From an uncultured bacterium (GTDB lineage Bacteria > Krumholzibacteriota > Krumholzibacteriia > G020349025): a DNA stretch of 64,000 nt. The position numbers were made by a program, and so were the translations under genes. This document shows, in pieces, positions 5,068-55,174 of this stretch; position 1 is the first letter of the stretch; every line of letters begins with the position of its first letter. The stretch spans positions 110,434 through 174,433 of the forward strand of contig CAZMNW010000020.1 of the NCBI GenBank assembly GCA_964567755.1, written 5' to 3'. The notes under the pieces were generated by a model. That model saw nothing but the letters and a program-made list of their open reading frames with translations, had not been told where the DNA came from and made no database searches.

Positions 5068-5215
5068 AGCGGCACGGCAACCTCTGGGACAAGGCGTGCG
5101 GCGAGCAAGGACAAAAGAGTCCAGCGATCGCCTGACTGACGACACCTTGCCGTAGTGAATCTAGACGGTTACATACAAAACAGGAAGACTCGATCGCCAA
5201 CCGCGGAGATGCGGC

Positions 5216-9283: not shown

Positions 9284-11128
9284 TTACGGAGACCGTCCCG
9301 GTGTCGGTGCCTGGAGCACGTGAGACAGACTGTCGGCAGCCGCTGACCGCCCGGTCGTTCGGTACAGGCTTCCCAGTGCACCCAAGGTCGCCGCGAGATC
9401 TGGGTGCAGGATGTCCAGCTGCTGCCGCTGAATGGCGAGCGCCTCGGCGAGCGCGGCTTCCCCATCCGCATATCGCCCCAGATCGATGAGAATCGTTCCG
9501 AGGTCGGTCAGGCTGGCTGCGACTTCAGGGCTCTGGTCGCCGAAAGTCGCACGCTGCGCATCCACCCCCATCTCGTACATGGCCCGTGCGCGATCGAGGA
9601 CACCGATCTCGCGATAACCGCGCCCGAGAGCCTGATACAGACGTCCCCCCAACTCGGGTGAGTCGATCGCCGTCCGAACGCGCTCGGCACGTTCGTCCAA
9701 GACCTGTCGAGTGAGAGTCGGGTTCTCGCGCTCGTGCTCCGAATCGGAGCCGGCAAGAATCTCGAGCACGAGGGCGCTCGCGCTGCGGGCCTTCTCAAGC
9801 GCGACCAGGGCCTCATCACGCTCTTGTCGTGCACTTCCGGCTTGCCTCGCCGTCCCGACCAGCCCGGCGCCGAAGACGAAGACGACGATCGCGACGGCGG
9901 TGATGGCCGCGCGACGGCGAGAACTCGTGCTCCCGAGGCGGTCGATGAAATTCTGCCGCCTCGGCCCCACAAGCTGGCCCGCCTGGGAACGTTCGAGATC
10001 CTCGAGTAGCGTTTGCACGGAGGGGTAGCGGTCGGCGGGATTCTTTCCCAGCGCCTTGAGCGCGATATGGTCGAGGTCTCGCACCAACTGCTTACGCCAG
10101 CCACGCTGGCGCGCAGGCGTCTCCGCTCGCGCGAGCGCCATGCTCGGGGCCACGGCTTGCGCATGAATGACCGCCCGGGAGACCTCTCCCGGCGCCGAAG
10201 CGCGCGGGCCATGCGGCCATTGGCCAGTCAACAGTTCGTAGAGTACGACCCCGAGAGAGAAGACGTCCGTGGCCGTCGTGACCGGCTCGCCGAGGATCTG
10301 TTCGGGAGCGGCGTAGTCGAGGGTGAGTCGCGGTCGAGACGAAACCGACGTTGCATGCTCGGGGTCCAGGAGCTTGGCGATGCCGAAGTCGAGGAGCTTC
10401 ACCTCTCCGTGATTGGACACGAAGATGTTGCTTGGTTTCAGATCCCGATGCACGATCAGGTTCTGGTGCGCGTACGCCACGGCACGGCAGGCCTGTTGGA
10501 ACAGGCGCAGTACGGAAGCTAGGTCCTCGCTGCGCCGCACGCAGTAGTCGGTGATCGGCTCGCCCTCCACGTACTCCATGGCGAAGTAAGGCAGACCATC
10601 CTCGGTGGTGCCTCCGTCCACGAGTCGAGCAATGTGCGGGTGATCGAGTCGAGCCACGATGCGGCGTTCCAGGACGAAGCGCGGCAAGACTTCGTCGGGG
10701 TCGAGGCTCCCCTTCATCAATTTGATCGCCACGCGTTGTTCGAACTCGCCGTCGGCGCGCTCTGCCAAGTACACCACGGCCATGCCGCCGCGACCGATCT
10801 CGCGCACGATGCGCCAGGGGCCAATCCGGTGTCCTGGCCCCACGGGTTCTGGATCGCGGCCGCCGCGTCGCGGCTCTCGTGCGCTCGTCAACGCTTCGGG
10901 AACGAGCTCCAGCGCCGGGCGCGCGAGGAAGTCCTCGGCGCGTTTGTCGGCGGCAAGCAGCTGCTTGACACGATCGCGCAGGTCCTGGTCTGTGCCACAG
11001 GCACGATCCAGGCAGCCCTCGAGCTCCGACGCCGGAAGTTCGAGAGCCTCGTCGAGCACTTGGGCGATGCGCTGCCAGCGTGCCGAGTCGACGGCGCTGA
11101 GCTCCGCTCTGAAGCGCGGAGGTCTCAT
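9284..11128 (-). CDS. Ser/Thr protein kinase with transmembrane segment and C-terminal TPR-like repeats
   Basis: Kinase subdomains: GRGGMAVVYLAE, VAIK, HRDLKPSNIF, DFGIA, APE; TM AAITAVAIVVFVFGAGLV; TPR-like C-terminus. Confidence 0.85.
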   Translation of the reverse strand: MRPPRFRAELSAVDSARWQRIAQVLDEALELPASELEGCLDRACGTDQDLRDRVKQLLAADKRAEDFLARPALELVPEALTSAREPRRGGRDPEPVGPGHRIGPWRIVREIGRGGMAVVYLAERADGEFEQRVAIKLMKGSLDPDEVLPRFVLERRIVARLDHPHIARLVDGGTTEDGLPYFAMEYVEGEPITDYCVRRSEDLASVLRLFQQACRAVAYAHQNLIVHRDLKPSNIFVSNHGEVKLLDFGIAKLLDPEHATSVSSRPRLTLDYAAPEQILGEPVTTATDVFSLGVVLYELLTGQWPHGPRASAPGEVSRAVIHAQAVAPSMALARAETPARQRGWRKQLVRDLDHIALKALGKNPADRYPSVQTLLEDLERSQAGQLVGPRRQNFIDRLGSTSSRRRAAITAVAIVVFVFGAGLVGTARQAGSARQERDEALVALEKARSASALVLEILAGSDSEHERENPTLTRQVLDERAERVRTAIDSPELGGRLYQALGRGYREIGVLDRARAMYEMGVDAQRATFGDQSPEVAASLTDLGTILIDLGRYADGEAALAEALAIQRQQLDILHPDLAATLGALGSLYRTTGRSAAADSLSHVLQAPTPGRSP

Positions 11129-11694
11129 AGTTCCTCGGTTGCGCTCAGGCTCTCGTAGAGAAGGGCGCGGGCTTTGCGCCAGTCGCGTTTCACCGTGCGT
11201 GGGGCGACATCCATGACGTCCGCGGTCTCCTCCACCGAGAGGCCGGCGAAGAAACGCAGCTCGACCACACGCGCGAGCCTCTCGTCCAACATGTACAAAC
11301 GGGCGAGCGCTTGGTCGAGGGCCAAAATTTCTTCGAGTCGGTCTTCGGAAGCCAACTGCACATCGTCGAGCGCGACGCGTGTGAGGTTCCCACCGCGTTT
11401 GTGTGCCAGGCGGCGGCGGGCGTAGTCCACCACGATCTGACGCATGGCGATGGCCACGACCGAGAAAAAGTGCCGGCGGTCGTTGAAGTCGAGCCGGCTC
11501 TGATCGAAGAGCCGGAGGAAGGCCTCGTGCACGAGAACGGTGGGACTGAGGGTTTGGGCGGAGGTGCCGACGTACAGCTTGGCGCGCGCCATGGCATGAA
11601 GCTCATCGTAGACCAGCGGCAACAGCTCGCCGAGCGCCTCGCGGCGCCCGTTGCGCAGGTCCACGAGCAGTGTCGTGATTCCGTTGTCCGGCAT
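11125..11694 (-). CDS. ECF-type RNA polymerase sigma factor (SigK/ECF-STK-associated type)
   Basis: Region 2 (LVYDELHAMARAKL...VHEAFLRLF) and region 4 (ELRFFAGLSVEETADVMDVAPRTVKRDWRKAR); 4-bp overlap with the downstream kinase gene. Confidence 0.85.
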   Translation of the reverse strand: MPDNGITTLLVDLRNGRREALGELLPLVYDELHAMARAKLYVGTSAQTLSPTVLVHEAFLRLFDQSRLDFNDRRHFFSVVAIAMRQIVVDYARRRLAHKRGGNLTRVALDDVQLASEDRLEEILALDQALARLYMLDERLARVVELRFFAGLSVEETADVMDVAPRTVKRDWRKARALLYESLSATEEL

Positions 11695-11909
11695 CGATCA
11701 CCCGTTCCCGAACCGAAGGATCGAGGCGCCGCGGATCAAGTCAGTGGTGCCGGCATTGTACTCGACGCGGAGAAGGCGAAAAAGACCAGTAGCCCTCCCC
11801 TCGGACGCCTGCGGACCCCCTGTCCCCATTCCGGTCGGTCTCGCGTTCTTCAGCATGGAATCCATCGCGCTGTGGCGTCTGGCTTCAGCGTCAACGAAGG
11901 AGGTCTTGC

Positions 11910-15083: not shown

Positions 15084-16210
15084 TGGAGGCGAGGATGAAA
15101 ACCAGGCGTGGAGCGTTGAGATCGCCGCGCACGCTGGCGCTGAACGGTTTGGCACTTTTGTTCGTGGCACCCGTGACGGCACAGGAGATCGACGTGCGGC
15201 TCTCGATCAAGTACATCCTCGGCGCGGATGGGGTGCGGCCAACGGGATTCTACGGCACCGAGCAGAACGTACGCGATGTGATCACGGCCACAAACCGCGC
15301 CATGCAGCGTTGGGGTCGAGGGTATCGATTCGTGATCACGGAGTTTCAAGACGTGACCGTGAGTGGGGCGCCGGGCTCGGCGGCTTTCTCGACGATCTCG
15401 CCGCTCGACGAAATCGGGATGCTCGAAGATGCTGCCGAGATGGATCCGGTCGGCTACCACTGGAGAACGAATGCGACCAACATTTATATCGCCGATTGCT
15501 GCGCGGCGGCCGCGGCCATTCCCGAGGACGATGTCGGGCGGGAGATCGTCTACTTCTCGGCCGACGTGAACCTGTCGTCCACCGATCCGGGCCAGAACGC
15601 GCGCCAGACCATCTGGGCGCACGAAATCGGGCACCACTTCGATCTGATTCACCCCTGGGCCGACGACCGGGTCGCGGACACCCAATCCGAGCCGACGCCG
15701 TCCCAGTGCACGGGGCCGATCCCGCCACAAGGCACCTTTCCCTGCGCGCTCGGCGGCAGCGACGAGTGCTGCTGCTCCAGCAAAGTCGCGAACCTGCTCG
15801 CCGCCGCGCAGAGCAACGGTTGGTCGCAGCAAGAGCATGACGATCTGCGCTACAACGTCATGGGCTACATGGGGGCGGTGGACTGCGCGCTGCTCGGGGA
15901 AGACGTCATTACGATCGACACCATGCGACTCACGGACGGGCAGCTCGATCGCTGGACGGATGCCAGCCGCAGACACCATGCCGACGACACGACCGGCCTG
16001 ACGCACTTCGTCGACGAGCAGGCCACTTCGCCGTTCAACGGCTACAGCGGTGACCCCTACCTCACGGTGAGCGACGGGCTCGGCGCCGCCGATTCCCTCG
16101 GCGGCGACATCGTGTTGATCCGGGCGGGAACCTATGTCGAGAACCTGATCCTCGACCACCCGGTGACGTTGCGTGCGAGTCGTGGCGCGGTGATCCTCGC
16201 GAAACCCTGA
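15080..16210 (+). CDS. secreted zinc metalloprotease, tandem paralog of 13998..15083
   Basis: TIWAHEIGHHFDLIHPWAD; shared C-terminal block (TDASRRHH...TGLTHFVD...FNGYSGDPY...IRAGTYVENL...HPVTLRA) with the upstream paralog. Confidence 0.7.
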   Translation: MMEARMKTRRGALRSPRTLALNGLALLFVAPVTAQEIDVRLSIKYILGADGVRPTGFYGTEQNVRDVITATNRAMQRWGRGYRFVITEFQDVTVSGAPGSAAFSTISPLDEIGMLEDAAEMDPVGYHWRTNATNIYIADCCAAAAAIPEDDVGREIVYFSADVNLSSTDPGQNARQTIWAHEIGHHFDLIHPWADDRVADTQSEPTPSQCTGPIPPQGTFPCALGGSDECCCSSKVANLLAAAQSNGWSQQEHDDLRYNVMGYMGAVDCALLGEDVITIDTMRLTDGQLDRWTDASRRHHADDTTGLTHFVDEQATSPFNGYSGDPYLTVSDGLGAADSLGGDIVLIRAGTYVENLILDHPVTLRASRGAVILAKP

Positions 16211-16275
16211 CGAATGGAGAAGAGCCCGACAGCCGGTGGCAAAGCTGGTACTCTCTTGCAAAGGGAACCATCCTC

Positions 16276-18987
16276 ATGCGTACGAGCGGGCGAATGTCGA
16301 AGGATCGGCGCCTCGCGGCAGTGAGACGCCGATGCGGCGGCGTTGTCTCCATGCTCTGCGTGCTCGCGTCTTGGAACAGCACTCGCGCTTGGGCGGCCCA
16401 GGGCGACGAGCATTGGTGGGACGGGTTCGCGTGGCCGGGGGCGGGGCTCGACGGCCCGGTTTCGTGCATGGCGGTACACGGTGGCGAGCTGATCATTGGC
16501 GGCCGCTTCACGCTCGCCGGCGGCGTCGCAGTCGATCATCTGGCGCGCTGGGATGGCTCGGCGTGGAGTCGGCTCGGCGATCGCGTCCTCAGCCATCTCA
16601 GCCGGGCGTACATCGGCCACATTGCGTCTTACGGGAACGAGCTGTTCGTCGCCGGGAACTTCGATCACATCGGAGACATCCCGGCCGCGAACCTCGCGGT
16701 GTGGAACGGGGTCGAGCTCCGGCCATGGGCGGTCGAGTTGCCTTCGGGCGCCAGATTGCAAACGGTCACCCAATTCGCCGTCGTCGACGGCAAGCTCTTC
16801 GTCTGCGGTTGGTTCGATCAGGACTCGACGACGTTCTATGGACTCGCGCAGTGGGACGGCATGAGCTGGACGCTCTTACCGACCTCCGAGCTCCCGATCG
16901 GCCAACAAATCTGGGCGCTCACCAGTTACGAGGGCCGGCTCGTGGTCGGTGGTGGCTTCACCAGCATTGGTGGGCAGTCCATCCGGCGAATCGCTGCATG
17001 GGACGGGAGCCGCTGGAGCCCGGTAGGAGGTGGAATCGGCAGCGACACCGACAGCGGCGAACTGGTGCTCGCGCTAACGGTGCATGACGGCAAGCTCGTG
17101 GCCGGTGGTCGGTTCCTGATGGCAGGCGGAGTTGCGGTGGACAACATCGCGCAGTGGGACGGCGCGATCTGGAAATCCGTCGCGGGGGGAATGAACGGAT
17201 CGGTGGATAGACTCGCCGAATACGATGGGAGGCTGATCGCTGCGGGGCTTTTCTCTCGCGCCGGGTCGGGCGAGGCGTATCGGATCGCGCAGTGGGATGG
17301 AGCGGCCTGGAGTCCGGTGGGCGAATGGCTCGCGGACCAGCACATATACGGCTTCGCCGTGTTCGAGAGCGAGCTTGTAGTGGGTGGCGAGTTTCGCGCT
17401 GCTGGGTCCAACGCGGCGAGCAACGTCGCAGCTTGGGACGGGAATGTCTGGCGGGCAGTGGACCCGCGGGCACGGATCTCCGGGTTGGGCCTGAACGGGA
17501 TCGTCGAGGCGTTCGCGGTTCACGGCTCGGATCTCCTGGTCGGTGGACAGTTCACCGTGGCGGGAACACTCGAGGTTGCCGCCCTAGCACGATGGGACGG
17601 GGACTCGTGGGCCTCGTTCGGCTTGCAGGCTGAGTACGTCCGGGACATCGCGGTGGATGGAGAGCGGGTGTTCGTGTCCGGATCGCTCCGTGATCCTCTG
17701 AATGGAACTGCGCACCAGATTGCGGAGTGGGATGGGAGCACGTGGCGGTTCCTTCCACCCCCGCCGATGAGCTATCTCGCGACACTCCTCCATGTGGAGG
17801 GGACACTGTACGCCGGTGGCAGGGAAGGTGTGCTGCGGTGGGATGGAACTTCCTGGCACGATCTCGGAGCGATCGTCGGGAACTGGGTCGTTGCGCTCTC
17901 GGTGTACCAAGGGAAGCTCGTCGCAGGGGGACGTTTCACCTCGATCGGAGGAGTCTCTGCGAATCGAATCGCGATCTGGGACGGAACGTCCTGGAGTCCG
18001 CTCGGAGGGGGCATGAGTGGTGTCCAGCCCTACTCCGACGCCGACATCCAAGATCTCACGGTGCTGGATGGGAAGCTGATCGCCGGCGGACATTTCTTAT
18101 TCGCAGGGAACACGCCAGCGAGCTTCATCGCCCAGTGGGACGGCAGCGACTGGAGTGCGCTCCCGGGATTGAATGACGAGGTCCATGCGGTGGCTATCCA
18201 CGAAGGTCAAGTGATCGCAGGGGGAAGGTTCGGGCCGGCAGCCGAAACGGACGCGAGTCGCATCGCGCGGTGGGATGGAGCGCGCTGGCAGGCGATGGGT
18301 TCGGGTTGCAACTGGATCCCCTACGCCTTCGCTTCCTACGACGATGACTTGTACGTCGGCGGCGGATTCACGCGCATGGGAGGCAAGGCCTCACATTACA
18401 TCGCGCGCTGGGATGACACGCCGGTTGCGCTCAGCGTGTCGGAGCTGTGGGCCGAACGAGTCGATGGGGACGTGATTGTAAGGTGGCATGCTGCGGTAGG
18501 CGTGGAGGATCTATTGGGATTCCAAGTCTACCGAGAAGTCGATGACGGCGTGCGGATGCGTGTCACGCCAACGCTCCTTCGTGGGAACAAGTTCTACGAG
18601 CACCGCGATCTCGAGGTGCCGGCTGGATCGCTGCGCTATTGGCTGGTCGCCGTCGATCGATCGGGTGCATCGACCTGGCACGGGCCGGTGGAAGTGCAAA
18701 CGCTAGGCGCAGAGACGGCGTTTCTCCGTGTCTGGCCGAACCCGTTCAGGTCGAGCACGCGAATCGATTTCGGGTTGTCCACATTGGGACCTGCGGCACT
18801 CGATGTTTACGACGTGCGAGGGCGACTTGTGACCCGCCTGATGGCACGGACGATCGGCGCCGGCCGCCATGAGCTGATGTGGGATGGACGGGAAGCCTCG
18901 TCGCGCGCAGTGGCCCCGGGAGTCTATTGGGTTCGGCTCGCGACTCCAGTGGGATTTCATTCCGCGAAGCTGATCAAATCCCAATAG
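16276..18987 (+). CDS. beta-propeller-like repeat protein (WDGxxW repeats) with FlgD-Ig-like C-terminal domain, paralog 1
   Basis: About 14 repeats of roughly 50 aa with recurring (A/I)(A/Q)xWDG(S/T)xW(S/T)xLGxG; C-terminus LRVWPNPFRSSTRIDFGLSTLGPAALDVYDVRGRLVTRLMARTIGAGRHELMWDGREASSRAVAPGVYWVRLATP...KLIKSQ. Confidence 0.75.
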   Translation: MRTSGRMSKDRRLAAVRRRCGGVVSMLCVLASWNSTRAWAAQGDEHWWDGFAWPGAGLDGPVSCMAVHGGELIIGGRFTLAGGVAVDHLARWDGSAWSRLGDRVLSHLSRAYIGHIASYGNELFVAGNFDHIGDIPAANLAVWNGVELRPWAVELPSGARLQTVTQFAVVDGKLFVCGWFDQDSTTFYGLAQWDGMSWTLLPTSELPIGQQIWALTSYEGRLVVGGGFTSIGGQSIRRIAAWDGSRWSPVGGGIGSDTDSGELVLALTVHDGKLVAGGRFLMAGGVAVDNIAQWDGAIWKSVAGGMNGSVDRLAEYDGRLIAAGLFSRAGSGEAYRIAQWDGAAWSPVGEWLADQHIYGFAVFESELVVGGEFRAAGSNAASNVAAWDGNVWRAVDPRARISGLGLNGIVEAFAVHGSDLLVGGQFTVAGTLEVAALARWDGDSWASFGLQAEYVRDIAVDGERVFVSGSLRDPLNGTAHQIAEWDGSTWRFLPPPPMSYLATLLHVEGTLYAGGREGVLRWDGTSWHDLGAIVGNWVVALSVYQGKLVAGGRFTSIGGVSANRIAIWDGTSWSPLGGGMSGVQPYSDADIQDLTVLDGKLIAGGHFLFAGNTPASFIAQWDGSDWSALPGLNDEVHAVAIHEGQVIAGGRFGPAAETDASRIARWDGARWQAMGSGCNWIPYAFASYDDDLYVGGGFTRMGGKASHYIARWDDTPVALSVSELWAERVDGDVIVRWHAAVGVEDLLGFQVYREVDDGVRMRVTPTLLRGNKFYEHRDLEVPAGSLRYWLVAVDRSGASTWHGPVEVQTLGAETAFLRVWPNPFRSSTRIDFGLSTLGPAALDVYDVRGRLVTRLMARTIGAGRHELMWDGREASSRAVAPGVYWVRLATPVGFHSAKLIKSQ

Positions 18988-19022
18988 AGCCAAGGGCGAT
19001 CTCTGCAAGCGCGATGAACTCA

Positions 19023-19103
19023 GTGCGGCCCCTCACGAGGCCCGAATGCGTTTCCTGGTTGGAGAGGTCCCGGGGGAGATGGTACCCTCCCTCAGGAATC
19101 ATC
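19023..19103 (+). promoter_or_regulatory. conserved 5-prime leader element with hairpin (GGGGGAG...CTCCCTC) preceding paralog 2
   Basis: About 80 bp nearly identical to 24486-24565 upstream of paralog 4; stem-loop ends about 14 nt before the ATG. Confidence 0.4.
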
Positions 19104-21770
19104 ATGACTTGCTACTGCCGATGGGCACGCCGCGGGCGAAACGCTGTCCAGGACGGACTGCGTACTTTGGTGTGCACGGCCACTTTTCTCCTCTTGTCGT
19201 GGAATGGCATTGAGGCTGGTGCCGTCGAAGGCGACGAGCACTGGCGGGGCGGCTTCGTTTGGCCGGGACCCGGGCTCAATGCGGCAGCCTCGGCAATGAT
19301 CGTCTACCAGGGGAAGCTCATCGTCGGCGGCGGATTCACGCTCGCCGGGGGCATCGAAGTCGGTCGCATCGCTCAATGGGACGGGACGACCTGGAGTAGT
19401 CTAGGTTCCGGAGTGACGATCTACCCAGGCCGCGCCGGGGTCCGCGCACTCACGGTCCACGGCGACACCCTCTACGCCTTCGGAACCTTCGACCATGCCG
19501 GAGGAGTTCCTGCAGCGAACTTCGCGGCCTGGGACGGAGTGCATTGGAGTCCAAGGAGCTTCGCGTTTCCTCAAGGAGTGCAACTCGTGACCCGATACCT
19601 GGTGGCTGGCTTGGATGACAAGGTCTACGTGTCGGGCGAGTTCAGACAGGGAACCGAGCTATTCCAAGGGTTGGCGGAATGGGACGGGGTGAACTCGAGG
19701 TTCCTGGCCACGGCGAATCCATCGAGGGAGCAGCTTGGTGTTTTTGCCCTCGCCGCGTATCAAGGCAAGCTCGTCGCCGGAGGACAATTCGTCACGATCG
19801 GCGGCGTTGCTGCGAAGAACATCGCCACCTGGGATGGGACGGGTTGGAGCGAGCTCGGAGGCGGCGTCGGCGGCACCGGCTCGGTCAGCAGGTTGCTGGT
19901 ATACGACGGTCGCCTCATCGTGGCGGGACAACTCACGGTGGCCGGCATTGTGAACAACATCGCGGCATGGGATGGTGTGTCGTGGCATCGGCTCGGCGCG
20001 GGAACGAACGGCTTCATCAGCAATCTCGTCGAAGTCGACGGGAAGTTGGTCGTTTCCGGCAGCTTCACGCGGGCGGGTGGAGTCGAGACCTCGCTTGCGC
20101 AGTGGGACGGTGCTGCGTGGAGCGCGGTCGAGGGCTGGCCGCTTGGAAGTACCGCAACCCGCCTCGCGGCCTTCGGTGGAGAACTCGTGGTCGCCGGGTT
20201 GGTCTTCCGTGTGGGCGATCTGGAAGCGACCTACATCGCAGCATGGGATGGAAACACATGGCGGGTCTTGGATGGACGCGACACACGAGTAGGGATGGGT
20301 CTCAATCGGGCTGCGACGAGTTTCGCCACCTACGGCGAAGACCTGTTGGTCGGCGGGCCATTCGAGTATGCGGGAAGCGTCGCCGCGAAGGGCCTCGCGC
20401 TCTGGGATGGAGTCAAGTGGAGCTCCCTCGGGCTCGATGCGGACAATGTGAACGACATCGTGGTGGATGGCGACCGGATCTTCTTGTCCGGGCAGTTCGT
20501 TGATCCTTCCAACAGTGCGCGCTATAACCTCGCCATCTGGGACGGGGGCTCGTGGCGGTACATGAACGCACCCATGGCATTCCCCAATGAGCTGATCATT
20601 CACGAAGAGAAGCTGATCGTATCCGGATCCTCCAGTATCTCAGAGTGGGATGGAAGCTTCTGGCGTTCCCTCGGACCGGTGAGCGGTGACATTTTCAGTC
20701 TCCTCCAATACGACGGCAGGCTGATCGCCTCTGGCTCTTTCATATCGATCGGGGGTGTCGAGGCCGGGAGCATCGCGCAGTGGGATGGAACGGCCTGGCA
20801 TCCCCTCGGGAGTGGGCTGGCAGACGCGAATTCGATTTCTTCACTCGAGGTTCATTCTGGGAAACTGGTCGCGGCTGTGAGATCTAACGACAACTTTCCG
20901 GCAGTATACGTGGCAGTCTGGGACGGCGAGAGTTGGACCTCTCTTCCGAGCGTGAATAATGGGATCTTTGCCTTGAAATCGCACGAAGGCGGGCTCTTCG
21001 TCGGCGGTCTCTTCACCGAGGCAGGCGGCGTGGTGGCCTCGTCCGTCGCGCGCTGGGATGGCACGAGGTGGAGCCCGATGGGATCCGGCTGCGATTGGGC
21101 GGTCCTGGGGTTTGGGTCATGGAAAGGCGAGCTCTATGTCGGCGGAGAATTCAATCTCGCCGGCGGACGATCTGCGGATGGCCTCGCACGCTGGGACGAC
21201 ACGCCGGTAGCGCTCACAGTGTCGGATCTGCAGGCGGTGCCAATCGACGACGATGTGCTCGTACGTTGGCGTACGGCTGGAGACGTGGAAGATCTTTTGG
21301 GATTCCATGTCTTCCGCGAGGTCGACGGCGGCGAGCGTGTGCGCGTCACACCAACGCTTCTACACGGGAACACGTTCTACGAGCACCGCGATCTCGACGC
21401 GCCTGCTGGATCCCTACGTTATTGGCTTGCCGCAGTCGATCGATCGGGTACATCGACCTGGTATGGACCGATGGAGGTACGGGGGGCGATCGGATCGACA
21501 GCGCTCCTCGGCAGCTGGCCGAGCCCATTCGTGTCAGGCACGCGAGTCCATTTCAGGTTGTCCACTTCGGGACCTGCGGCACTCGATGTTTACGACGTAC
21601 GAGGGCGTCTGGTGTCACGTCTGCTGCAGGAGGAGTTCCCCGCCGGAAGACACGTGGTGCAATGGGATGGCCGTGACCAGGCGGGGCGTCCGTTGTCGCC
21701 AGGCATCTATTTCATTCGGCTCGGCACGCACGACGGGGTCCTTGCACACAAGCTCACGAAGGGGCGATGA
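19104..21770 (+). CDS. beta-propeller-like repeat protein with FlgD-Ig-like C-terminal domain, paralog 2
   Basis: N-terminus MTCYCRWARRGRNAVQ...; same repeat architecture and C-terminal domain as paralog 1; stop overlaps the start of paralog 3 (ATGA). Confidence 0.8.
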   Translation: MTCYCRWARRGRNAVQDGLRTLVCTATFLLLSWNGIEAGAVEGDEHWRGGFVWPGPGLNAAASAMIVYQGKLIVGGGFTLAGGIEVGRIAQWDGTTWSSLGSGVTIYPGRAGVRALTVHGDTLYAFGTFDHAGGVPAANFAAWDGVHWSPRSFAFPQGVQLVTRYLVAGLDDKVYVSGEFRQGTELFQGLAEWDGVNSRFLATANPSREQLGVFALAAYQGKLVAGGQFVTIGGVAAKNIATWDGTGWSELGGGVGGTGSVSRLLVYDGRLIVAGQLTVAGIVNNIAAWDGVSWHRLGAGTNGFISNLVEVDGKLVVSGSFTRAGGVETSLAQWDGAAWSAVEGWPLGSTATRLAAFGGELVVAGLVFRVGDLEATYIAAWDGNTWRVLDGRDTRVGMGLNRAATSFATYGEDLLVGGPFEYAGSVAAKGLALWDGVKWSSLGLDADNVNDIVVDGDRIFLSGQFVDPSNSARYNLAIWDGGSWRYMNAPMAFPNELIIHEEKLIVSGSSSISEWDGSFWRSLGPVSGDIFSLLQYDGRLIASGSFISIGGVEAGSIAQWDGTAWHPLGSGLADANSISSLEVHSGKLVAAVRSNDNFPAVYVAVWDGESWTSLPSVNNGIFALKSHEGGLFVGGLFTEAGGVVASSVARWDGTRWSPMGSGCDWAVLGFGSWKGELYVGGEFNLAGGRSADGLARWDDTPVALTVSDLQAVPIDDDVLVRWRTAGDVEDLLGFHVFREVDGGERVRVTPTLLHGNTFYEHRDLDAPAGSLRYWLAAVDRSGTSTWYGPMEVRGAIGSTALLGSWPSPFVSGTRVHFRLSTSGPAALDVYDVRGRLVSRLLQEEFPAGRHVVQWDGRDQAGRPLSPGIYFIRLGTHDGVLAHKLTKGR

Positions 21771-24427
21771 GACTCAACTGCCGATGGGCACGCCGCGGGC
21801 GAACCACTGTCCAGGACAGACCGCGTGCGTTGGTGTGCGGCGTCATGATCGTCGCTCTTTCGCTCACCTCGAGTGGCTGGCAGGCGAGCGCTCTCGAAGG
21901 TGACGAACACTGGCGGAGCAACTTCCTTTGGCCGGGACCCGGAGTCAACGGCATTCCCTCGGCAGCGATCGTTCACGACGGGAAGCTCGTCGTCGGCGGT
22001 GCGCTCACGCTCGCGGGAGGCACCGAAGTCGGCCGCATCGCACAATGGGACGGCACGAACTGGAGCGGTCTTGGTTCCGGGATGACCTACTATCCAGGCA
22101 GCTGCTTCGTCAACGCACTCGCCATCTACCGGGACACGCTCTACGCCTACGGTAACTTCGACCGCGCCGGAGGAGTGCCTGCAACGGACTTCGCCGCCTG
22201 GGACGGAATGCAATGGACCCCTCGGGAGTTCGCATTTCCCCCCGGGGTTCAACTCGTGAACCAGTATCTGATCGCTGGCTTGGACGACAAACTCTACGTG
22301 TCGGGCACGTTCGAGCAAGGGGGCATGAGCTTCCAAGGTTTGGCGGAATGGAACGGAGCGAGCTGGAGATTCATTGCCACGGCGAGGGTGGGGGACCTTT
22401 ACATTCTTGATCTCGCCTTGTACCAGGGCAAGCTCGTTGCCGGGGGACAGTTCACGACGATCGGCGGCGTGGTTGCGAGGCATATCGCCGCATGGGATGG
22501 AATGATCTGGAGCGAGCTCGGAGGCGGGCTCGACGCGGGCTCGAATGATGTCAGCAAGCTGGTGGTGTACGAAGGCGAACTCGTCGTGGCTGGGGAATTC
22601 ACGGTGGCTGGGGTCGTCGTCAACATCGCGGCATGGGACGGTACGACTTGGAAGCGACTCGGTGCCGGAACCAACGGCTGGGTGAATAATCTCGTGGCTT
22701 TCGACGGGAAGTTGATTGCTTCCGGCGGTTTCACGCGAGCGGGAGGCGTCGAGACGTCGTTCGCACAGTGGGACGGTACAACATGGAGCGCGGTCGCGGG
22801 CTGGCCCCTCGGACAGGTCGTCCACCACTTGGTCGTCTTCGGTGGGGATCTTGTTGTGACTGGGTCTTTCCTTACCATCGGCGATCTAGAGGCGAGCTAC
22901 ATCATAGCTTGGGACGGCAACACGTGGCGTGCCTTGGATGGTCGCGGCGTGCGTGAGGGGTTGGGTCTCGATCGGGGGGCGACCAGTTTCGTTCCCTACG
23001 GCGAGGATCTTCTGGTCGGAGGGGCGTTCGAGTTTGCGGGAAGCATTGCCGCGAAGGGTCTCGCACGCTGGAATGGAGCCAAATGGAGCTCCTTCGGGCT
23101 CGAGGCGGACAACGTGAACGGGATCGCGGTGGACGGCGACCGGATCTTCGTGTGCGGGGGGTTCGTCGATCCTTCCAACGGCGCACGCTACAACGTTGCC
23201 ACCTGGGACGGGGGCTCGTGGCGATACTCCAATGCACCCCCATACTTCCTCTACGAGCTGATCATTCACGAAGGGAAGCTGGTGGTCATGGGTACTTCCG
23301 GCATCCACGAGTGGGATGGAAGCTCCTGGCGGGTTGTCGGCACGACATACGGCGGCATCTACAGTCTCTTTCAGTACGACGGCAAGCTGATCGCCTCTGG
23401 TGGTTTCACGACGATCGGGGGTGTCGAGGCCCAGAAGATCGCGCAGTGGGATGGAACGGCCTGGACTCCGCTCGGGGGTGGTTTTGCAGATGCACGGTAT
23501 GTCTCTCAGCTCGGGGTTCACGATGGGAAACTCGTCGCGGCCGTGTCTGGGGGACTTGCGCCTGCGTACGTGGCGGTGTGGGATGGCACGAGCTGGAGCT
23601 CTCTTCCGGGCATGAACGATCGAATCCTCGCATTGACATCGCACGAAGGCAGTCTCTTCGCCGGCGGTCTGTTCACCGAAGCAGGTGGCGTAGTGACCTC
23701 GCGCATCGCGCGCTGGGATGGCGTGAGCTGGAACCCAATGGGATCCGGCTGCGATTGGGCGGTCACGGGGTTTGGATCGTGGAAAGGCGTGCTCTATGTC
23801 GGCGGAGAATTCAATCTCGCCGGCGGACGCCCCGCGGATTGCCTGGCGCTTTGGGATGACACGCCGGTCGCGCTTGCGGTGTCAGACCTGCGGGCCGAAC
23901 GAGTCGATGCAGATGTGCTCGTGACATGGCGTGCGGGCGGAGACCTGGAGGATCTCGTGGGGTTCCATGTCTACCGCGAAGACGATGACGGCGTGCGGAA
24001 GCGCCTCACCTCGACGCTTCTGCATGGAAACACAGTCTACGAGCACCGCGATCTCGCCGCGCCTGCAGGATCGCTGCGCTATTGGCTGGTCGCAGTCGAC
24101 CGATCGGGTGCGTCGACCTGGCACGGACCGGTGAACGTGCAGGGGACTATCGGAACGACGGCGCTCCTCGGCATCTGGCCGAACCCGTTCGTGTCGAGCA
24201 CGCGAATCGGTTTCGAATTGTCCTCCCCGGGACCTGCGGCGCTCGATGTTTACGACGTACGCGGACGACTGGTGACCCGCCTGATGACACGGACGGTCGG
24301 CACCGGCCGCCACGAGGCGATGTGGGATGGATGCGCCTCGTCACGCGCGGTGGCGCCCGGCGTCTATTGGGTTCGGCTCGCGACGCCGACGGGATTGCAT
24401 TCCGCCAAGCTGATCAAGTCGAAATAG
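21767..24427 (+). CDS. beta-propeller-like repeat protein with FlgD-Ig-like C-terminal domain, paralog 3
   Basis: N-terminus MRLNCRWARRGRTTVQ...; same repeats; C-terminus IWPNPFVSSTRIGFELSSPGPAALDVYDVRGRLVTRLM...VYWVRLATP. Confidence 0.8.
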   Translation: MRLNCRWARRGRTTVQDRPRALVCGVMIVALSLTSSGWQASALEGDEHWRSNFLWPGPGVNGIPSAAIVHDGKLVVGGALTLAGGTEVGRIAQWDGTNWSGLGSGMTYYPGSCFVNALAIYRDTLYAYGNFDRAGGVPATDFAAWDGMQWTPREFAFPPGVQLVNQYLIAGLDDKLYVSGTFEQGGMSFQGLAEWNGASWRFIATARVGDLYILDLALYQGKLVAGGQFTTIGGVVARHIAAWDGMIWSELGGGLDAGSNDVSKLVVYEGELVVAGEFTVAGVVVNIAAWDGTTWKRLGAGTNGWVNNLVAFDGKLIASGGFTRAGGVETSFAQWDGTTWSAVAGWPLGQVVHHLVVFGGDLVVTGSFLTIGDLEASYIIAWDGNTWRALDGRGVREGLGLDRGATSFVPYGEDLLVGGAFEFAGSIAAKGLARWNGAKWSSFGLEADNVNGIAVDGDRIFVCGGFVDPSNGARYNVATWDGGSWRYSNAPPYFLYELIIHEGKLVVMGTSGIHEWDGSSWRVVGTTYGGIYSLFQYDGKLIASGGFTTIGGVEAQKIAQWDGTAWTPLGGGFADARYVSQLGVHDGKLVAAVSGGLAPAYVAVWDGTSWSSLPGMNDRILALTSHEGSLFAGGLFTEAGGVVTSRIARWDGVSWNPMGSGCDWAVTGFGSWKGVLYVGGEFNLAGGRPADCLALWDDTPVALAVSDLRAERVDADVLVTWRAGGDLEDLVGFHVYREDDDGVRKRLTSTLLHGNTVYEHRDLAAPAGSLRYWLVAVDRSGASTWHGPVNVQGTIGTTALLGIWPNPFVSSTRIGFELSSPGPAALDVYDVRGRLVTRLMTRTVGTGRHEAMWDGCASSRAVAPGVYWVRLATPTGLHSAKLIKSK

Positions 24428-24485
24428 AGCCCCGTTGTGAAGGCGCCTGCGACGAGGCGAGCCGTAAACGGACCTTGAAACCAAT

Positions 24486-24565
24486 GTGGCCCCTCTCGAG
24501 GCCCGAATGCGTTCCCTGGTTTGGAGAGGTCTCGGGGGAGATGGTAGTCTCCCTCTGGAATCATC
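24486..24565 (+). promoter_or_regulatory. conserved 5-prime leader element with hairpin GGGGGAGA-tggtag-TCTCCCTC (24534-24555) preceding paralog 4
   Basis: Near-identical to 19023-19103; 8-bp stem with one G-U wobble. Confidence 0.4.
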
Positions 24566-27236
24566 ATGACTTGCTACTGCCGATGGGCGCGCCGCTCGCG
24601 AACCGCTGTCCTGGATAGGCAGCGGGCTTTTTGCACGGCAACTCTTCTCCTCTTCTTCTTCTCGTGGAACGGCATGACGGCTGGCGCCCTCGAGGGCGAC
24701 GAGCACTGGCGGGGCCGCTTCGTTTGGCCCGGGGCCGGGTTCAATAGCGGACCCTCGACGATGATCGTCTACCAGGGGAAGCTCATCGTCGGCGGCGGTT
24801 TCACGCTTGCGGGGGGGAACCGAAGTTGGTCGCATCGCGCAATGGGACGGCATGACCTGGAGCGGCCTTAGTTCGGGGATGACGGTCTACCCGGGAAGTG
24901 CCCTAGTCAACAAACGCGCTGTCTACCGTGACACGCTCTGCGCCTCCGGCGTCTTCGATCACGCAGGTGGAGTTCCTGCAGAGAACTTTGCTGCCTGGGA
25001 TGGAGTGCAATGGAGTCCGGGGAGCTTCGCATCGACTGCCGGGGTGCAACTGGTGACTCCTCGTCTAGTGGTTGGCGTGGAGAACAATCTCTACGTGTTG
25101 GGCGGTTTCAAGCAGGGAACCACGTCCCTCGCAGGCCTGGCGGAATGGAATGGCGTGAACTGGAGATTCCTGCCCACGAAAAATCCGTCGGCAGGGACGT
25201 TTTCCATTAGTGACCTCGCCGTGTATCAGGGCAAGCTCGTCGTCGGAGGGCAATTCACCATGATCGGCGGCGTTGCCGCGAGGAACATCGCCACCTGGGA
25301 CGGGATTGGTTGGAACGAGCTCGGAGGCGGCGTCGGGGACACCGGTTACGTCAGCAAGTTGCTGGTGTACGACGGTCGCCTCATCGTGGCTGGACGATTC
25401 ACGCTGGCTGATGCCGTGAACAACATCGCAGCATGGGACGGTGTGGCATGGCATCGGCTCGGCGCGGGAACGAACGACTCCATCGGCGAGCTCGTCGAAG
25501 TCGGCGGAAATCTCATCGCTTCCGGCAGCTTCACGCGGGCGGGCGGAGTCGAGGCCTCGCTGGCCCTGTGGGACGGTGCCGCGTGGAGCGCGGTCGCCGG
25601 CTGGCCGCTTGGGCAGGACGCTTACCGCATGATCACCTTCGGTGACGAACTCGTGGTGGTCGGGTCGTTTTTCCGTATCGGCGACCTGGAAGTAGCCAAC
25701 ATCGCAGCATGGGATGGGAACACGTGGCGTGTCCTGGATGGACGCAGCATGCGAGCAGGGCTGGGTCTCGATGCGGCGCCGACCAGTTTCGTTCCCTACG
25801 GCGAGGACCTTTTAGTCCGCGGGGACTTCGAGTTTGCAGGGAACATGGCCGCGAATGGCCTCGCGCGCTGGGATGGAGCCAAATGGAGCTCCTTCGGGCT
25901 CGATGCGGACCGAGTGAGCGAACCCGTGGTGGATGGCGACCGGGTCTTCGTGTGCGGGTCGTTCGTCGATCCTTCCAATGGCGCACGCTACAACCTCGCC
26001 ACATGGGACGGGGGCTCGTGGCGATACGCGAATGCACCCATAGCATCCCCTGGTAGACTGATCATTCACGAAGGGAAGCTGGTCGTATCAGGTTTCTCCG
26101 ATATCGAAGAGTGGGATGGAAGCTCCTGGCGTTCCCTAGGACCGGTGAGCGGCAACATTTCCAGTCTCCTCCAATACGACGGCAGGCTGATCGCCTCTGG
26201 CGATTTCACGACGATCGGCGGTGTCGAGGCGCAGAACATTGCGCAGTGGGATGGAACGGCCTGGACTCCGCTCGGGAGTGGACTGGCAAACGCCCGGAAT
26301 GTCTCAGATCTCGGGGTTCACGATGGGGAACTCGTCGCGGCCGTGCTTGGGGGATTCCCGCTTGGGTACGTGGCGGTCTGGGATGGTGTGAGCTGGAGCT
26401 TTCTTCCTCGTATGAACGATCGTATTCTGGCCCTGAAATCACACGAAGGTAGTCTTTTCGCCGGCGGTCTCTTCACCGAAGCGGGCGGCGTGGTGGCGTC
26501 GCGCATCGCACGCTGGGATGGCTCGAGCTGGAACCCGATGGGATCCGGCTGCGATTGGGCGGTCATGGGGTTCGGATCGTGGAAAGGCGTGCTCTATGTC
26601 GGCGGGAACTTCAATCTCGCCGGTGGACGCCCCGCGGACTGCTTGGCGCTTTGGGACGACACCCCGGTGCCGGTCGCGGTGTCGGAACTGCGGGCCGAAC
26701 GAGTCGATGCAGATGTGCTCGTAACTTGGCGTGCGGGCGGAGACCTGGGGGATCTCGTGGGGTTCCATGTCCTCCGCGAAGGCGATGATGGCGTACGGAA
26801 GCGCCTCACGTCGACACTTCTGCATGGAAGCACAGTCTACGGGCACCGCGATCTCAGCGTGCCTGCAGGATCGCTGCGCTATTGGCTGGCGGCAGTCGAC
26901 CGATCGGGCGACTCGACCTGGTACGGGCCGGTGAACGTGCAGGGGACGATCGGAACAACAGCGCTCCTCGGCATCCGGCCGAACCCATTCGTGTCGAGCA
27001 CGCGAATCGATTTCGAGTTGTCCACCCCGGGACCTGCGGCGCTCGATGTTTACGACGTACGTGGACGACTGGTGATCCGACTGATGGCACGCACGATCGG
27101 CGCCGGCCGCCACGAGGCGATGTGGGACGGACGCGGGAGCCCGACCCATGCGGCGGCCCATGGGATCTATTTTGTTCGCCTGGCAACTCCCAAGGGATTG
27201 CTATCCATCAAGCTCATCAAGTCGCCTTCGAAGTAG
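24566..27236 (+). pseudogene. beta-propeller-like repeat protein paralog 4, disrupted by +1 frameshift in a G7 homopolymer (24814-24820)
   Basis: Track ORF 24566..24871 (MTCYCRWARRSR...FTLAGGNRSWSH) and ORF 24807..27236 (...GGTEVGRIAQWDG...) are the same gene in two frames; the junction lies at gcGGGGGGGaacc, where paralogs 2 and 3 read gcgggaggcacc (one base fewer). Confidence 0.7.
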
Positions 27237-27246
27237 TTCCGGACCG

Positions 27247-27607
27247 CCGGACCTCCGTAGATTTACGGATGGCTCTTGCTCCTGTGTGGCTCTCCCTCGC
27301 CGTCGTGCCACCGACTTGGACTTCCGCCGACCCGTATTGCCACTCGATTGCGTTTCCCTTGAGTGAGAGGTCTTGCGTGAAGGTGGTACCCTCTTGCTGG
27401 AATCAGACAAGGTTTGGTACGGGCGGATGGTGCGCCTTCGGCGCACCCATGCTCGCGATGGAACATGCGCCGTTTTGGGCTCGGTCACGCTCTTCGCCTT
27501 TTCCCCTCTCCAGAAGCGGCATGCAGGCTGAGGCTGCCGAGGGCGACGAGTCTTGGTGGGGTGGCTTCGTTTGGCTGGGGCCCAGGGTAAACGCTCACGA
27601 CGCGTGA
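27247..27607 (+). pseudogene. remnant of a fifth beta-propeller paralog (leader plus first ~60 codons only)
   Basis: 27380-27600 is homologous to the leader and N-terminal coding region of paralogs 2 and 4 (ggtaccctcttgctggaatcag...; MQAEAAEGDESWWGGFVWLGP vs AGALEGDEHWRGRFVWPGAG); homology stops at about 27600 with an in-frame TGA. Confidence 0.5.
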
Positions 27608-27645
27608 CGAGTGGATGGTCCGGAAGCTCGCGAAAGGACGAGAGA

Positions 27646-30600
27646 GTGGTGAACCAACCAGATTCTCGCCAGCGCGCGCGCGCGTTCCTTCGCATGTGCG
27701 ATCGAAGCGGGCGCGTGTGGGCGTGCGTCTATCTGTTCTTGCACATGGGCTTGCTTCTCCCCGCCACGGCTCACGCCCAGCCACCGCTCTTGAGCGCGGA
27801 TCCTGTGTGGGTCTCGCCTTCCCACGCGACTCGCGGCCTCGCTCTCGGCGACGTGGACATGGATGGCGATTTGGATCTCGTGCTCGGCAACTTCCGCGAG
27901 GCAACGACGCTGCATCTCAACCAGGGCGGGCGTTTCGATCCTGCACCGGCGTGGTCGTCACCGGTTCAGCCGACGACGAGCGTGGCGCTCGGCGACGTGA
28001 ACGGAGATGGCGCCATCGATCTCGTGTGTGGCAATGTGAATCAAAGCTCACGATTGTACCTCAACGTGGGGGGCCGGTTCGGAGATACGCACAACTGGCT
28101 TTCCGAAGGCCATGCCACAGAGGACGTCGCGCTGCTGGACGTGGAGGGCGACGGTGATCTCGATCTCATCTGCGCCAACCAAGACCGAAGCGTGCTCTAC
28201 CTGAACGAAAATGACCAACTCGGCAATGTTCCGCACTGGAATTTCCTCACCAGTGCATCGGCAACAGCATGTGGCGACTTGGATGGAGATGGGGATCTCG
28301 ACGTGGTGTTCGGCACATCTCCGAAAGCATCGTTCCATCGCAATGAAGGCGAGATTTTCTCGAGCGCCATCAACTTCTCGCAAGACCAGTCGACTTCGGG
28401 CATCGCCTTGGGAGACGTGAATGGAGATGGCGATCTCGATGTCGTCCTCGGAGGCAGCAGCACGACGACGCTCTATCTGGGCCAGGGAAGTTCCTTCAAA
28501 GTTTTCCCGGATTGGATTCTCCAAGCCCCGAACACCACGGACATTGCGCTAGGAGACGTGGACGGAGATGGAGATCCAGATCTCGTCTGCGGCCATGCTG
28601 ATCAAAGCACGAAGTTTTACCTCAATGAATCCGGGACGTTCACCAACACTCCGTCGTGGACGTCGCAAGTGCACGCGACGCAGAACATTGTGTTGGGCGA
28701 CGTGGACGGCGACGGCTGGATCGATCTCGTGTGCGGCAACGAGGATGAAGGCACGGTGCTCTATACCAATACGGCTGGACGTTTCGACGCAACCCCTGTT
28801 TGGTCGTCCTCGGAGTTCCGCACGTTCGATGTGGTGCTCGAAGACGTGGATGGGGATCACGACTTGGACGTGTTCCTCGGCAACTCTGGCCAGAGCACCA
28901 TGCTCTATCTCAACGCCGGGGGGACGCTGAGCGCTTCGCCCATCGACGTGTCGCGAGCACACTTCACGCAGGGGATCGCCGTCGGCGATGTGGATGGCGA
29001 CGGTGACCCAGATCTAGTCTGCGGCAACGGGCTCTTCGGCAACACTCTCTATCTCAATGTCGGAGGTGTGTTCGGTCCCGACCCGGTGTGGACTTCGCGG
29101 CCGCATGGAACGCTCGACGTGGCACTTGGAGATGTCGATGGGGACGGTGACTCGGACCTCGTGTGCGGCAATCCATTCCAGCCAACTGTGCTGTATCGCA
29201 ACGAAGGCGGACGCTTCGGCAGTGAACCCGCTTGGATGTCGCAACTTCACGATACCCGCAGCGTCGCGCTGGGCGACGTGGATGTCGACGGAGATCTGGA
29301 TCTAGTCTGTGGCAACATCAATCAGCGCACGACGCTCTATCGCAACGAGAACGGAATTCTCGGGACTGTGCCATTTTGGTTTTCGCAGGCGCATGCGACT
29401 GCGGACGTCGCGCTGGGCGATATCGACGGCGATCGCAGACCCGATCTTGTCTGTGCCAACACCAACCAGGAAAGCGTCGTTTATCGTAACGAGGGGGCGG
29501 GTTTCGGCGACGCTCCCCATTGGCTGTCCAAGACTCAGGCGACAGCCGCGGTCACGCTGGGCGACGTGGACGCCGACGGCAGGCTCGATCTCCTTTTCGC
29601 CAATCACGCCGAGCCGGCGACGATTTACCTCAACGGGGAGTCCGGTCTCGCGGCCGCTCCCGCATGGTCGTCACCAGTGCAAACGGCGAGCAGCATCGCC
29701 GCAGGGGACCTGGATTTGGATGGTGATCTCGACTTCCTCTGTGGAGGCAACATGCAGAGCTCGAGGTTGTACACTGGAACCTCGAGCCGTCCTTTCCGAG
29801 GCAATCCTCAGACGCCCGTACATCACTTGCCCAATCAGGATGCCGCACTGCGCTACGCGCACGTCGAGGTGCAGGGCGCGAATTGGGCTGCAGTGCGCTT
29901 GTTGGCGGTCGACCTCGAGTCGGATCCAGTGTGGATCCTGGCGGAGTATCAGTTCCGTGGCGAGCCCGAATGGCATCCTGTGGATTCGGCTGACACTTCA
30001 GGGCTTTTCGGACCGTTCGACACCTCGCCTCTCGGTGCCGCGCACGTGCTGTCATGGAAGTTGGATCGCATCCCCGTCGATCCCCGCCCGGTCGTCCTGC
30101 GGTTGAAGGCGATCTCTCACCCGCGCCGCACGGGTGAGATTCGCCACATTGGCGCTTCTCTCGTGGATGTGGGTGTGGTCGACGTGCGGCGACCGGTCAT
30201 CGCCGCATCCGTTTCCACTCTGGAGTTTTCCACCGTTACCGTGGGCGACACGGTGACGGCAATGGTCACGATCTCCAATCGTGGCAACGAGCTGCTCACG
30301 TTGAATCAGGTCGTAACTGCCTCGCCGGAGCTACGCGTCGCGCAATCTACGCCTTTCGCCATCGACCCAGCGGGACACGTCGACCTGGAGGTATTCCTCG
30401 AGCCGCTCGCTCCACGCCTCGACTGGGGAGATCTCTCGATCGAGAGCAACGACCCGTCCACGCCACTGCTCACCATCGATATCGCGACGGATGTGCGCGA
30501 CTTGTCGTTCACCGCACGGCTGCTCACAGCGACACCGGAGGTCCCCGTGGGCCAAGCGCTCACGGCCGTGCTCACGCCCGCGGCTCTGGTCCGGATCGAA

Positions 30601-32481: not shown

Positions 32482-32527
32482 TTCTTTTTTCGGCGAGCCC
32501 AGTCCGAAGGCCCGGACGAGGACGAAA

Positions 32528-37340: not shown

Positions 37341-37345
37341 ACGCC

Positions 37346-37867
37346 ATGGGTGCGCATCGAATCGCAAATGCACGCGATCGGGATGAGCAGCGGAGGCTCT
37401 ATCGGGGAATCCATGCCAAAGCGCGGCTGAACCCCGTTCGCTCGAGCGGCGGTGCGATCTTGGTCTTTGCGTTGCTGACCGTGCCGGCAAGCTTACTTGT
37501 CTTGCCGCGGCAAGTGTGGAGCCAAGTGGACTTTTTCCAACCGCCTTCCTTGATCTCGAGTCAGGACCGCAATACGCAGGGCGTCGCTCTGGGGGACGTC
37601 GATCGCGACGGCGACCTCGACCTCGTGCTCGGGAACTACAGGCAAAGCGCGACGCTCCATCTCAACTCCGCAGGGACTCTCGGTTCGATGCCGGCTTGGT
37701 CCTCCGACCTTCCGCATCGGACGACGAGCGTCGTTCTAGGAGACACTGACGGCGACGGCGATCTCGACCTCGTTTGTGAGAACTTCGCGCAGAGAACGAC
37801 GCTGTATTTGAACGAAAACGGCAGCTTCGGCGTCGAACCGGCTTGGTTTGCAGGCCGGTGCGCTTGA
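37346..37867 (+). pseudogene. internal-deletion remnant of an FG-GAP paralog (N-terminal ~165 codons joined to the extreme 3-prime end)
   Basis: N-terminal signal-like sequence and two or three FG-GAP repeats; its last ~30 nt plus the downstream spacer (gcgcttgaaatgaatcggttttttt...cgaaggcc...gaaaATG) match the 3-prime end and junction of paralog A (cgtgctcttgagatgattctttttt...cgaaggcc...gaaaATG). Confidence 0.45.
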
Positions 37868-37922
37868 AATGAATCGGTTTTTTTGTGGTGAAGCCAGTTC
37901 GAAGGCCAGGTGCGAGGCTGAA

Positions 37923-42899: not shown

Positions 42900-42911
42900 T
42901 GCCATGAAGGA

Positions 42912-55158: not shown

Positions 55159-55174
55159 CGGCACGTTCCTGGCA
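55159..55174 (+). promoter_or_regulatory. sigma-54 (-24/-12)-like promoter motif CGGCACGTTCCTGGCA, preceded by palindrome GGGGAAACTTCCCC (55141-55154) and an AT-rich tract
   Basis: GG and GC at canonical spacing, about 30 bp upstream of the ImcH-like cytochrome start codon; GAGGAAGGGAG RBS follows. Confidence 0.35.

Follow-up and report, generated by a model that had tools for sequence, protein, structure and literature searches.

An 80-bp leader shared by tandem beta-propeller paralogs in an uncultured Krumholzibacteriota bacterium: probable constraint and a candidate promoter and ribosome-binding region

A leader of about 80 bp lies directly before the start codons of the second and fourth genes (p2 and p4) of a tandem paralog array in an uncultured bacterium of the Krumholzibacteriota. 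When the gene junctions were aligned with MAFFT, 73 of the 81 positions (90%) proved identical in the two copies, which also differ by one 1-nt indel. More diverged copies precede paralog 1 (p1) and the remnant of a fifth paralog (p5). The leader element is probably under constraint, as judged from its rate of change. Its motifs suggest, tentatively, that it may be the paralog family's own promoter and ribosome-binding region, inherited by duplication and possibly accompanied by a dyad operator around the -10 box. Positions throughout refer to the window, which is the whole 64,000-nt stretch of DNA that was analysed.

The array consists of four head-to-tail paralogs and a truncated fifth copy, all on the + strand (Table 1). 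The full paralogs each encode about 890 amino acids, with DUF5122/Rax2-type beta-propeller repeats and a C-terminal FlgD Ig-like domain. The p2 and p4 leaders form the 3' parts of the p1/p2 and p3/p4 gaps, which measure 116 nt (18988-19103) and 138 nt (24428-24565) respectively. Paralog 3 (p3) is leaderless, its ATG sharing bases with the p2 stop codon (ATGA). In the p5 remnant, the leader is followed by about 60 N-terminal codons, after which the frame is closed; this remnant (27332-27615) is found directly 5' of the gene for a 1600-aa FG-GAP repeat protein (ORF 27553-32481). The p4 gene has seven G residues at 24811-24817 where p2 has five, and the 1-nt insertion splits it into two frames, 24566-24871 and 24807-27236. 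Other stop codons are absent from p4. The G7 run may reflect a mistake in assembly, a gene that was inactivated very recently, or a slippage-prone tract by which a surface protein is turned on and off. The frame of p2 is open from 18879, but an N-terminal extension was ruled out by an in-frame TAG in the hairpin loop of p4.

Table 1. Leader copies, paralogs and candidate signals in the window; bit scores are from a covariance model built on the four leader copies
Feature	Position	Strand	Description
Leader copy before p1	16194..16275	+	Strongly diverged; CGAATG, TGGTACTCTCTTGC and GGGAACCATC kept in the same order
Leader copy before p2	19023..19103	+	73/81 identical to the p4 copy; 89 bits
Leader copy before p4	24484..24565	+	86.5 bits
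Leader copy before p5 remnant	27332..27412	+	Decayed; 64% identity to p2; 71 bits
p1 CDS	16276..18987	+	3' end homologous to the 3' ends of p3 and p4
p2 CDS	19104..21770	+	888 aa; DUF5122/Rax2 beta-propeller repeats and C-terminal FlgD Ig-like domain
p3 CDS	21767..24427	+	Start overlaps p2 stop codon (ATGA); leaderless
p4 CDS	24566..27236	+	Interrupted by 1-nt insertion in G7 run (24811-24817)
p5, truncated fifth paralog	~27332 to 27615	+	Remnant with decayed leader; ATG changed to AAG
Extended -10-like box TGGTACCCT (TGnTAnnnT)	19080..19088	+	Also at 24542-24550 (TGGTAGTCT), 27384-27392 and 16246-16254
-35-like TTGGAG	19059..19064	+	18 nt 5' of TACCCT; same hexamer in p4 at 24521-24526; read from sequence, 3/6 match
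p2 hairpin, UCC.GGGGGAG-loop AUGGUACC-CUCCCUC.GGA	19068..19097	+	-17.4 kcal/mol (43 nt), z = -1.1
p4 hairpin, UCU.GGGGGAGAU-loop GGUA-GUCUCCCUC.GGA	24530..24559	+	-18.6 kcal/mol, z = -2.4
Shine-Dalgarno-like AGGA of p2	19094..19097	+	6 nt 5' of ATG at 19104; p4 equivalent UGGA at 24556-24559

The original prediction had described an ~80-bp conserved segment directly before the ATG codons at 19023-19103 and 24486-24565, and the alignment bears this out, with the p4 copy beginning two bases farther on the 5' side than had been proposed. A degenerate copy placed at 27380-27470 does exist, but it is the one that lies at 27332-27412. Between p2 and p4, faint similarity continues for about 10 nt farther 5'. 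The copy before p1 is found in the 65-nt gap 5' of that gene and retains TGGTAC.CTC and GGAAyCATC at the corresponding place. Two long sub-patterns of the leader, allowing up to three mismatches, matched only the p2 and p4 sites in the 64 kb, where shuffled sequences gave an expectation of 0. The leader can be regarded as part of the 5' end of the family unit, older than all of the duplications, because there are four copies and each abuts a paralog start. A dispersed repeat of the REP or MITE type was ruled out, as the copies are confined to paralog 5' ends. A look-alike, GTAGCCCTCCCCTC, at 11789-11802, 5' of the first gene of the cluster, was at chance level and had no significant hairpin.

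The case for constraint is based on comparison of the leader with neighbouring sites. Four-fold synonymous sites of p2 and p4 were identical at 274 of 397 positions (69%), which gives a binomial p = 6e-6 for the 73/81 of the leader. Within the 100 codons adjoining the leader the value was 71%, and between p1 and p2 it was 44% over four-fold sites. The spacer from the preceding stop codon to the leader could not be aligned (35 nt before p2 vs 57 nt before p4; 20/35 identities with 21 gap columns). The leader changes at about one-quarter of the synonymous rate while the adjoining spacer varies freely, which supports some role in cis.

Orthologous leaders were absent from the data searched, because the homologues are distant and the closest relative lacks 46 kb of the window. 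A 23-base degenerate leader pattern had no matches in the genome and metagenome contig collections. The nearest protein homologues outside the contig were 30-40% identical and came from Planctomycetota, Zixibacteria, Ignavibacteria and other phyla. When the four-copy covariance model was run against 80 homologous loci (up to 41% identical, from many phyla), only the four training copies were credible; the best other match, at 16 bits, lay far from the gene and on the wrong strand. Two Logan contigs that carry p1 (L001 and L002) belong to the same organism, are identical through the leader and break inside the repeat, and add no independent sequence. The closest relative, contig L083, was found via the well-conserved NtrC-type regulator encoded at 6964-8316, which is 90% identical in amino acid sequence, with DNA at about 76% nucleotide identity. 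This contig is collinear with the window at 5.3-8.8 kb and 55.16-57.25 kb, and it lacks about 8.9-55.1 kb (46 kb including the whole array), with about 6 kb of unrelated genes instead.

The only block invariant in all four leader copies is TGGTAnnCTC, which fits TGnTAnnnT exactly and whose variable positions are positions 3-4 of a -10 hexamer, the least critical ones. The original prediction had offered a promoter or operator shared by family members as one possibility; the invariant block fits a promoter, while a consensus promoter scan called none at the leaders, the hexamers TACCCT and TTGGAG each matching at 3/6 positions. In p1, CCGACA is found 17 nt 5' of the box. The resemblance to extended -10 (TGn) sigma-70 promoters comprises TGnTAnnnT in all four copies and a TTG-containing -35-like hexamer at 17-18 nt; the leaders differ from such promoters in their weak hexamers, a G+C-rich discriminator, a very short implied UTR and the negative scan. 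TGnTAnnnT occurs 8 times in the 64 kb vs 16.4 expected, and five of the eight are in the intergenic part (7%), all in gene-proximal orientation; since the four leader copies are homologous, the enrichment reflects about two independent events (p ~0.04). An AT-rich patch is absent, the lowest 25-nt G+C fractions being 0.52 and 0.44 vs 0.16-0.36 in intergenic regions with footprinted or plausible promoters. Footprinting against relatives indicated that this lineage uses -35/-10 promoters, with TTGNNG-N17-TACATA before a histidine-kinase gene. The sigma-70-type footprint itself is TTGCCG-N17-TACATA at ~5141-5169, and three related contigs (L083-L085) share it.

On the promoter reading, the leader would have been copied with the gene at each expansion of the array, carrying an internal promoter and a ribosome-binding site. 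TGGTA(C/G)(C/T)CT would be the extended -10 box and TTGGAG, 18 nt 5' of it, a weak -35 element. Transcription would start ~7-10 nt past the box, giving a very short 5' UTR with AGGA or UGGA 6 nt before the ATG. The p2 and p3 genes would be co-transcribed and translationally coupled through the ATGA overlap, and p4 would have its own start. The inverted repeat GGGAG(A)/(T)CTCCC that brackets the -10 box may be incidental or a dyad site for a repressor. The TGnTAnnnT block is a putative promoter element, and both the proposed transcription start and an operator function are likewise putative.

Several observations are counted for a promoter. The leader is far better conserved than four-fold sites next to a spacer that cannot be aligned, all of its copies abut paralog start codons with none elsewhere, and the invariance of the block extends to the anciently diverged p1. 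About 32 kb of same-strand genes (11910-43790) must hold internal promoters, and gaps of more than 100 nt precede p2 and p4 vs the overlap at p2/p3. There is also no terminator between the genes and no match to a known RNA family. Against a promoter are the implied 5' UTR of about 9 nt, which is unusually short, the complementarity of the hairpin arms (p = 0.003-0.015), which stays unexplained unless an operator is invoked, and the part of the 90% identity that a short gene-conversion tract could supply.

Other kinds of promoter were also considered. A sigma-54 promoter was rejected. With TGGTAC-N4-TTGC, the p1 and p5 copies resemble the -24/-12 pattern TGGCAC-N5-TTGC, and an NtrC-type sigma-54 activator is encoded nearby, at 6964-8316. 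The spacing in p1 and p5, however, is GG-N9-GC, one base short of the obligatory GG-N10-GC, and the -12 GC is missing from p2 and p4, which read CCTC where the other two copies have TTGC. An ECF-type promoter (GAAT...GTC) was unsupported, as its elements would be separated by 19-20 nt, a spacer that is too long and not constant. Elsewhere in the window, CGGCACGTTCCTGGCA at 55159-55174 is a sigma-54-type -24/-12 site with the canonical GG-N10-GC, about 35 nt 5' of a NapC/NirT-family cytochrome gene (55205-56623). It is part of a 19-nt block that is identical at 18/19 positions in L083, in a surrounding spacer that has diverged. The region 5216-8316 encodes the sigma-54 activator together with its histidine kinase.

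A leader peptide was rejected as well. An upstream ATG within CGAATG occurs at 19046-19048 (p2), 24507-24509 (p4) and 16214-16216 (p1) and is TTG in p5; GAGG lies 5 nt before it in p2 and p4. The start codon is shared, but neither the frame (owing to the 1-nt indel) nor the peptide is conserved. In p4 the upstream ORF has 20 codons and its TGA overlaps the main ATG, and in p1 and p2 it runs out of frame into the gene. The encoded peptides are unrelated, beginning MRFLVGEVPGEM (55 codons, out of frame into the CDS), MRSLVWRGLGGDGSLPLESS (complete at 20 codons, TGA overlapping the ATG) and MEKSPTAGG.

A second explanation, which is possible but rather unlikely, is that the intercistronic leader acts in cis as an RNA hairpin. 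In this case GGGGGAG would pair with the anti-Shine-Dalgarno-like CUCCCUC, and the foot (UCC or UCU with GGA) would tie up the Shine-Dalgarno sequence, so that translation of p2 and p4 is lowered or made conditional, or the mRNA is stabilized or processed. It presumes transcripts that read through from p1 or p3. A GGGGGAG/CTCCCTC stem-loop had been proposed at the outset, and RNAfold does predict this stem in both copies (43 nt ending at the ATG). The p2 stem has 7 bp and the p4 stem 9 bp, and in both of them three additional foot pairs engage the GGA of AGGA (p2) or UGGA (p4). The 3' arm ends 10 nt before the ATG rather than about 14 nt, as had been suggested.

In 63% G+C sequence such stability is not rare: 6.9% of 43-nt windows are as stable as the p2 hairpin and 4.2% as stable as that of p4, which puts both in the top 4-7%. 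The two sites are among the most structured of 14 translation-initiation regions at gene starts. The z-scores of the hairpins against dinucleotide shuffles are modest (Table 1), and the whole leader is no stabler than its shuffles (z = +1.6 and -0.7). Randomization of the 5' arm gave a signal in the two good copies, with p = 0.003-0.015 for p2 and p <= 0.005 for p4; only 0-1.5% of randomized arms paired as well, and the natural arms beat 98.5-100% of them. In the older copies the same procedure was not significant (p = 0.21-0.40 for p1 and 0.13-0.15 for p5), and the hairpin is marginal or absent there. The p5 copy retains the same architecture at -8.2 kcal/mol.

The substitutions are compatible with pairing. 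Among 24 base pairs compared between p2 and p4, three changed on one side and all three preserve the pair, and the remaining changes fall in loops or bulges; no pair changed on both sides, so that double compensatory change is lacking. When all four copies were folded jointly with RNAalifold, a hairpin was placed at the same position with 88.5% of cells paired and six pairs changed on both sides, vs 48-67% paired in slid controls. This signal is suggestive only, since the sequences tested are also those from which the structure was derived, and the four count as about two independent lineages. The idea of a cis-regulatory RNA structure, also raised in the original prediction, is weakly supported: it keeps a predicted stem with pair-preserving substitutions, and it is weakened by the ordinary stability of the whole leader, by the non-significant older copies and by ordinary occlusion of the Shine-Dalgarno region. 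The pairing probability of that region was 0.72-0.76 in p2 and p4, inside the range of 0.29-0.89 for other genes of the window, so occlusion was ruled out as a distinguishing property. Most genes in the window have a GGAG- or AGGA-type sequence 5-10 nt 5' of the start.

A search of 15500-28500 with Rfam 15 (cmscan, E <= 10), one of the checks that had been proposed for the hairpin, returned two chance matches elsewhere and none in any leader copy, and the 80 related loci held no homologue. An intrinsic terminator was ruled out: neither leader has a terminator-like site on the + strand, and the stem is followed by AGGAAUCAUCAUG with no U-run. This absence of a terminator between the genes also counts for the hairpin reading. 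The leaders are similar to hairpins that sequester the Shine-Dalgarno sequence (ROSE and fourU thermometers; translational operators) in having a stem-loop directly 5' of the start whose foot pairs the GGA. They differ in the lack of any Rfam match, in occlusion that is not above the norm and in having no covariation from independent sequences. Known RNA thermometers are far less stable than the leader stem of -17 to -19 kcal/mol.

A broader version, in which all four leaders form a lineage-specific structured RNA, is unlikely. This RNA would present a UGGUA(C) loop on a stem that has changed while staying paired (GGGG/CCUC in p2 and p4; GCAA/UUGC and GUGA/UUGC in p1 and p5), with the foot engaging the GGA of the Shine-Dalgarno sequence. 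Within a long polycistronic mRNA, it would determine how strongly each propeller-protein cistron is translated, possibly via a factor that binds the loop.

It is similarly improbable that the leader is functionless, being a 5' flank copied passively in tandem duplication or by unequal crossing-over, with the extra similarity due to a short and fairly recent gene-conversion tract at ~19013-19135. Exchange does occur in this array. The first ~400 codons of p4 are closest to p2 and most of the remainder to p3, and the last ~250 codons of p1 are 76-83% identical to p3 and 72-76% to p4, vs 51-60% elsewhere in p1. The paralogs are mosaic and therefore exchange between copies occurs; such patchwork identities indicate unequal crossing-over or gene conversion inside the array. 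The first 30 nt of the CDS are also identical in p2 and p4, so that the high-identity block continues from the leader into the gene. Likewise, the nine differences between the p2 and p4 leaders are evenly distributed with no distinct sub-block, and the pseudogene copy before p5 has decayed to 64%. However, 90% identity with eight substitutions and an indel is not what a fresh conversion tract would leave, and four-fold sites in the adjoining 100 codons are only 71% identical. The retention of TGGTAC.CTC and GGAAyCATC in the anciently diverged p1 argues for constraint on at least the core, and the sharp contrast between leader and spacer is a prediction of selection. A short conversion tract could therefore explain part of the 90% identity, but neither the core motifs of p1 nor the 71% at downstream four-fold sites.

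Least probable is a protein operator, with or without a promoter, in which the dyad GGGAGA-N6-TCTCCC (perfect in p4, 5/6 in p2), perhaps with GGCC-N8-GGCC farther 5', binds a dimeric regulator: the inverted repeat is kept in p2 and p4, centred on the invariant TGGTA, and the surrounding island encodes regulators (an ECF sigma factor at 11125-11694 and a Ser/Thr kinase at 9284-11128), but the dyad is absent from p1 and p5 (3/6 half-site matches), a second site was not found elsewhere in the window and there is no adjacent candidate DNA-binding repressor.

Conserved upstream regions are known from multigene families of surface proteins, such as the upstream homology boxes of Borrelia erp and mlp genes and the 5' regions of Mycoplasma vsp and vlp genes. 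The likeness is that a non-coding block of the promoter and ribosome-binding type runs into signal-peptide codons and is near-identical among diverging, mosaic paralogs. The present case differs in having two good copies only, in one uncultured lineage, and in showing no sign of switching or recombination-based variation.

The array is located in a lineage-specific island, because L083 is collinear on both sides and lacks the 46 kb. Besides the propeller paralogs, the island holds the ECF sigma factor and Ser/Thr kinase genes and genes for giant FG-GAP/FlgD-Ig proteins. The region 27700-43790 encodes very large FG-GAP/VCBS-repeat proteins with FlgD-Ig or Por_Secre_tail C-termini, and its genes contain 144-nt internal DNA repeats that are 60-75% identical across genes.

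Taken together, the leader resembles the kind of upstream control region that ordinarily accompanies a duplicated gene; it is not distinct from others of that kind and does not look like a new regulatory RNA. If it is a promoter and ribosome-binding cassette, p2 and p3 would form one unit and p4 another, with the control region copied at each duplication, which would be routine. If the hairpin is functional, it would be a small RNA element private to one uncultured lineage, which would help to annotate this genome without bearing on any wider question. More can be learned from the context than from the leader itself. Secreted beta-propeller and FG-GAP proteins that carry FlgD-Ig tails abound in the island, and this content, together with the mosaic paralogs, points to rapid diversification of the surface-protein repertoire.
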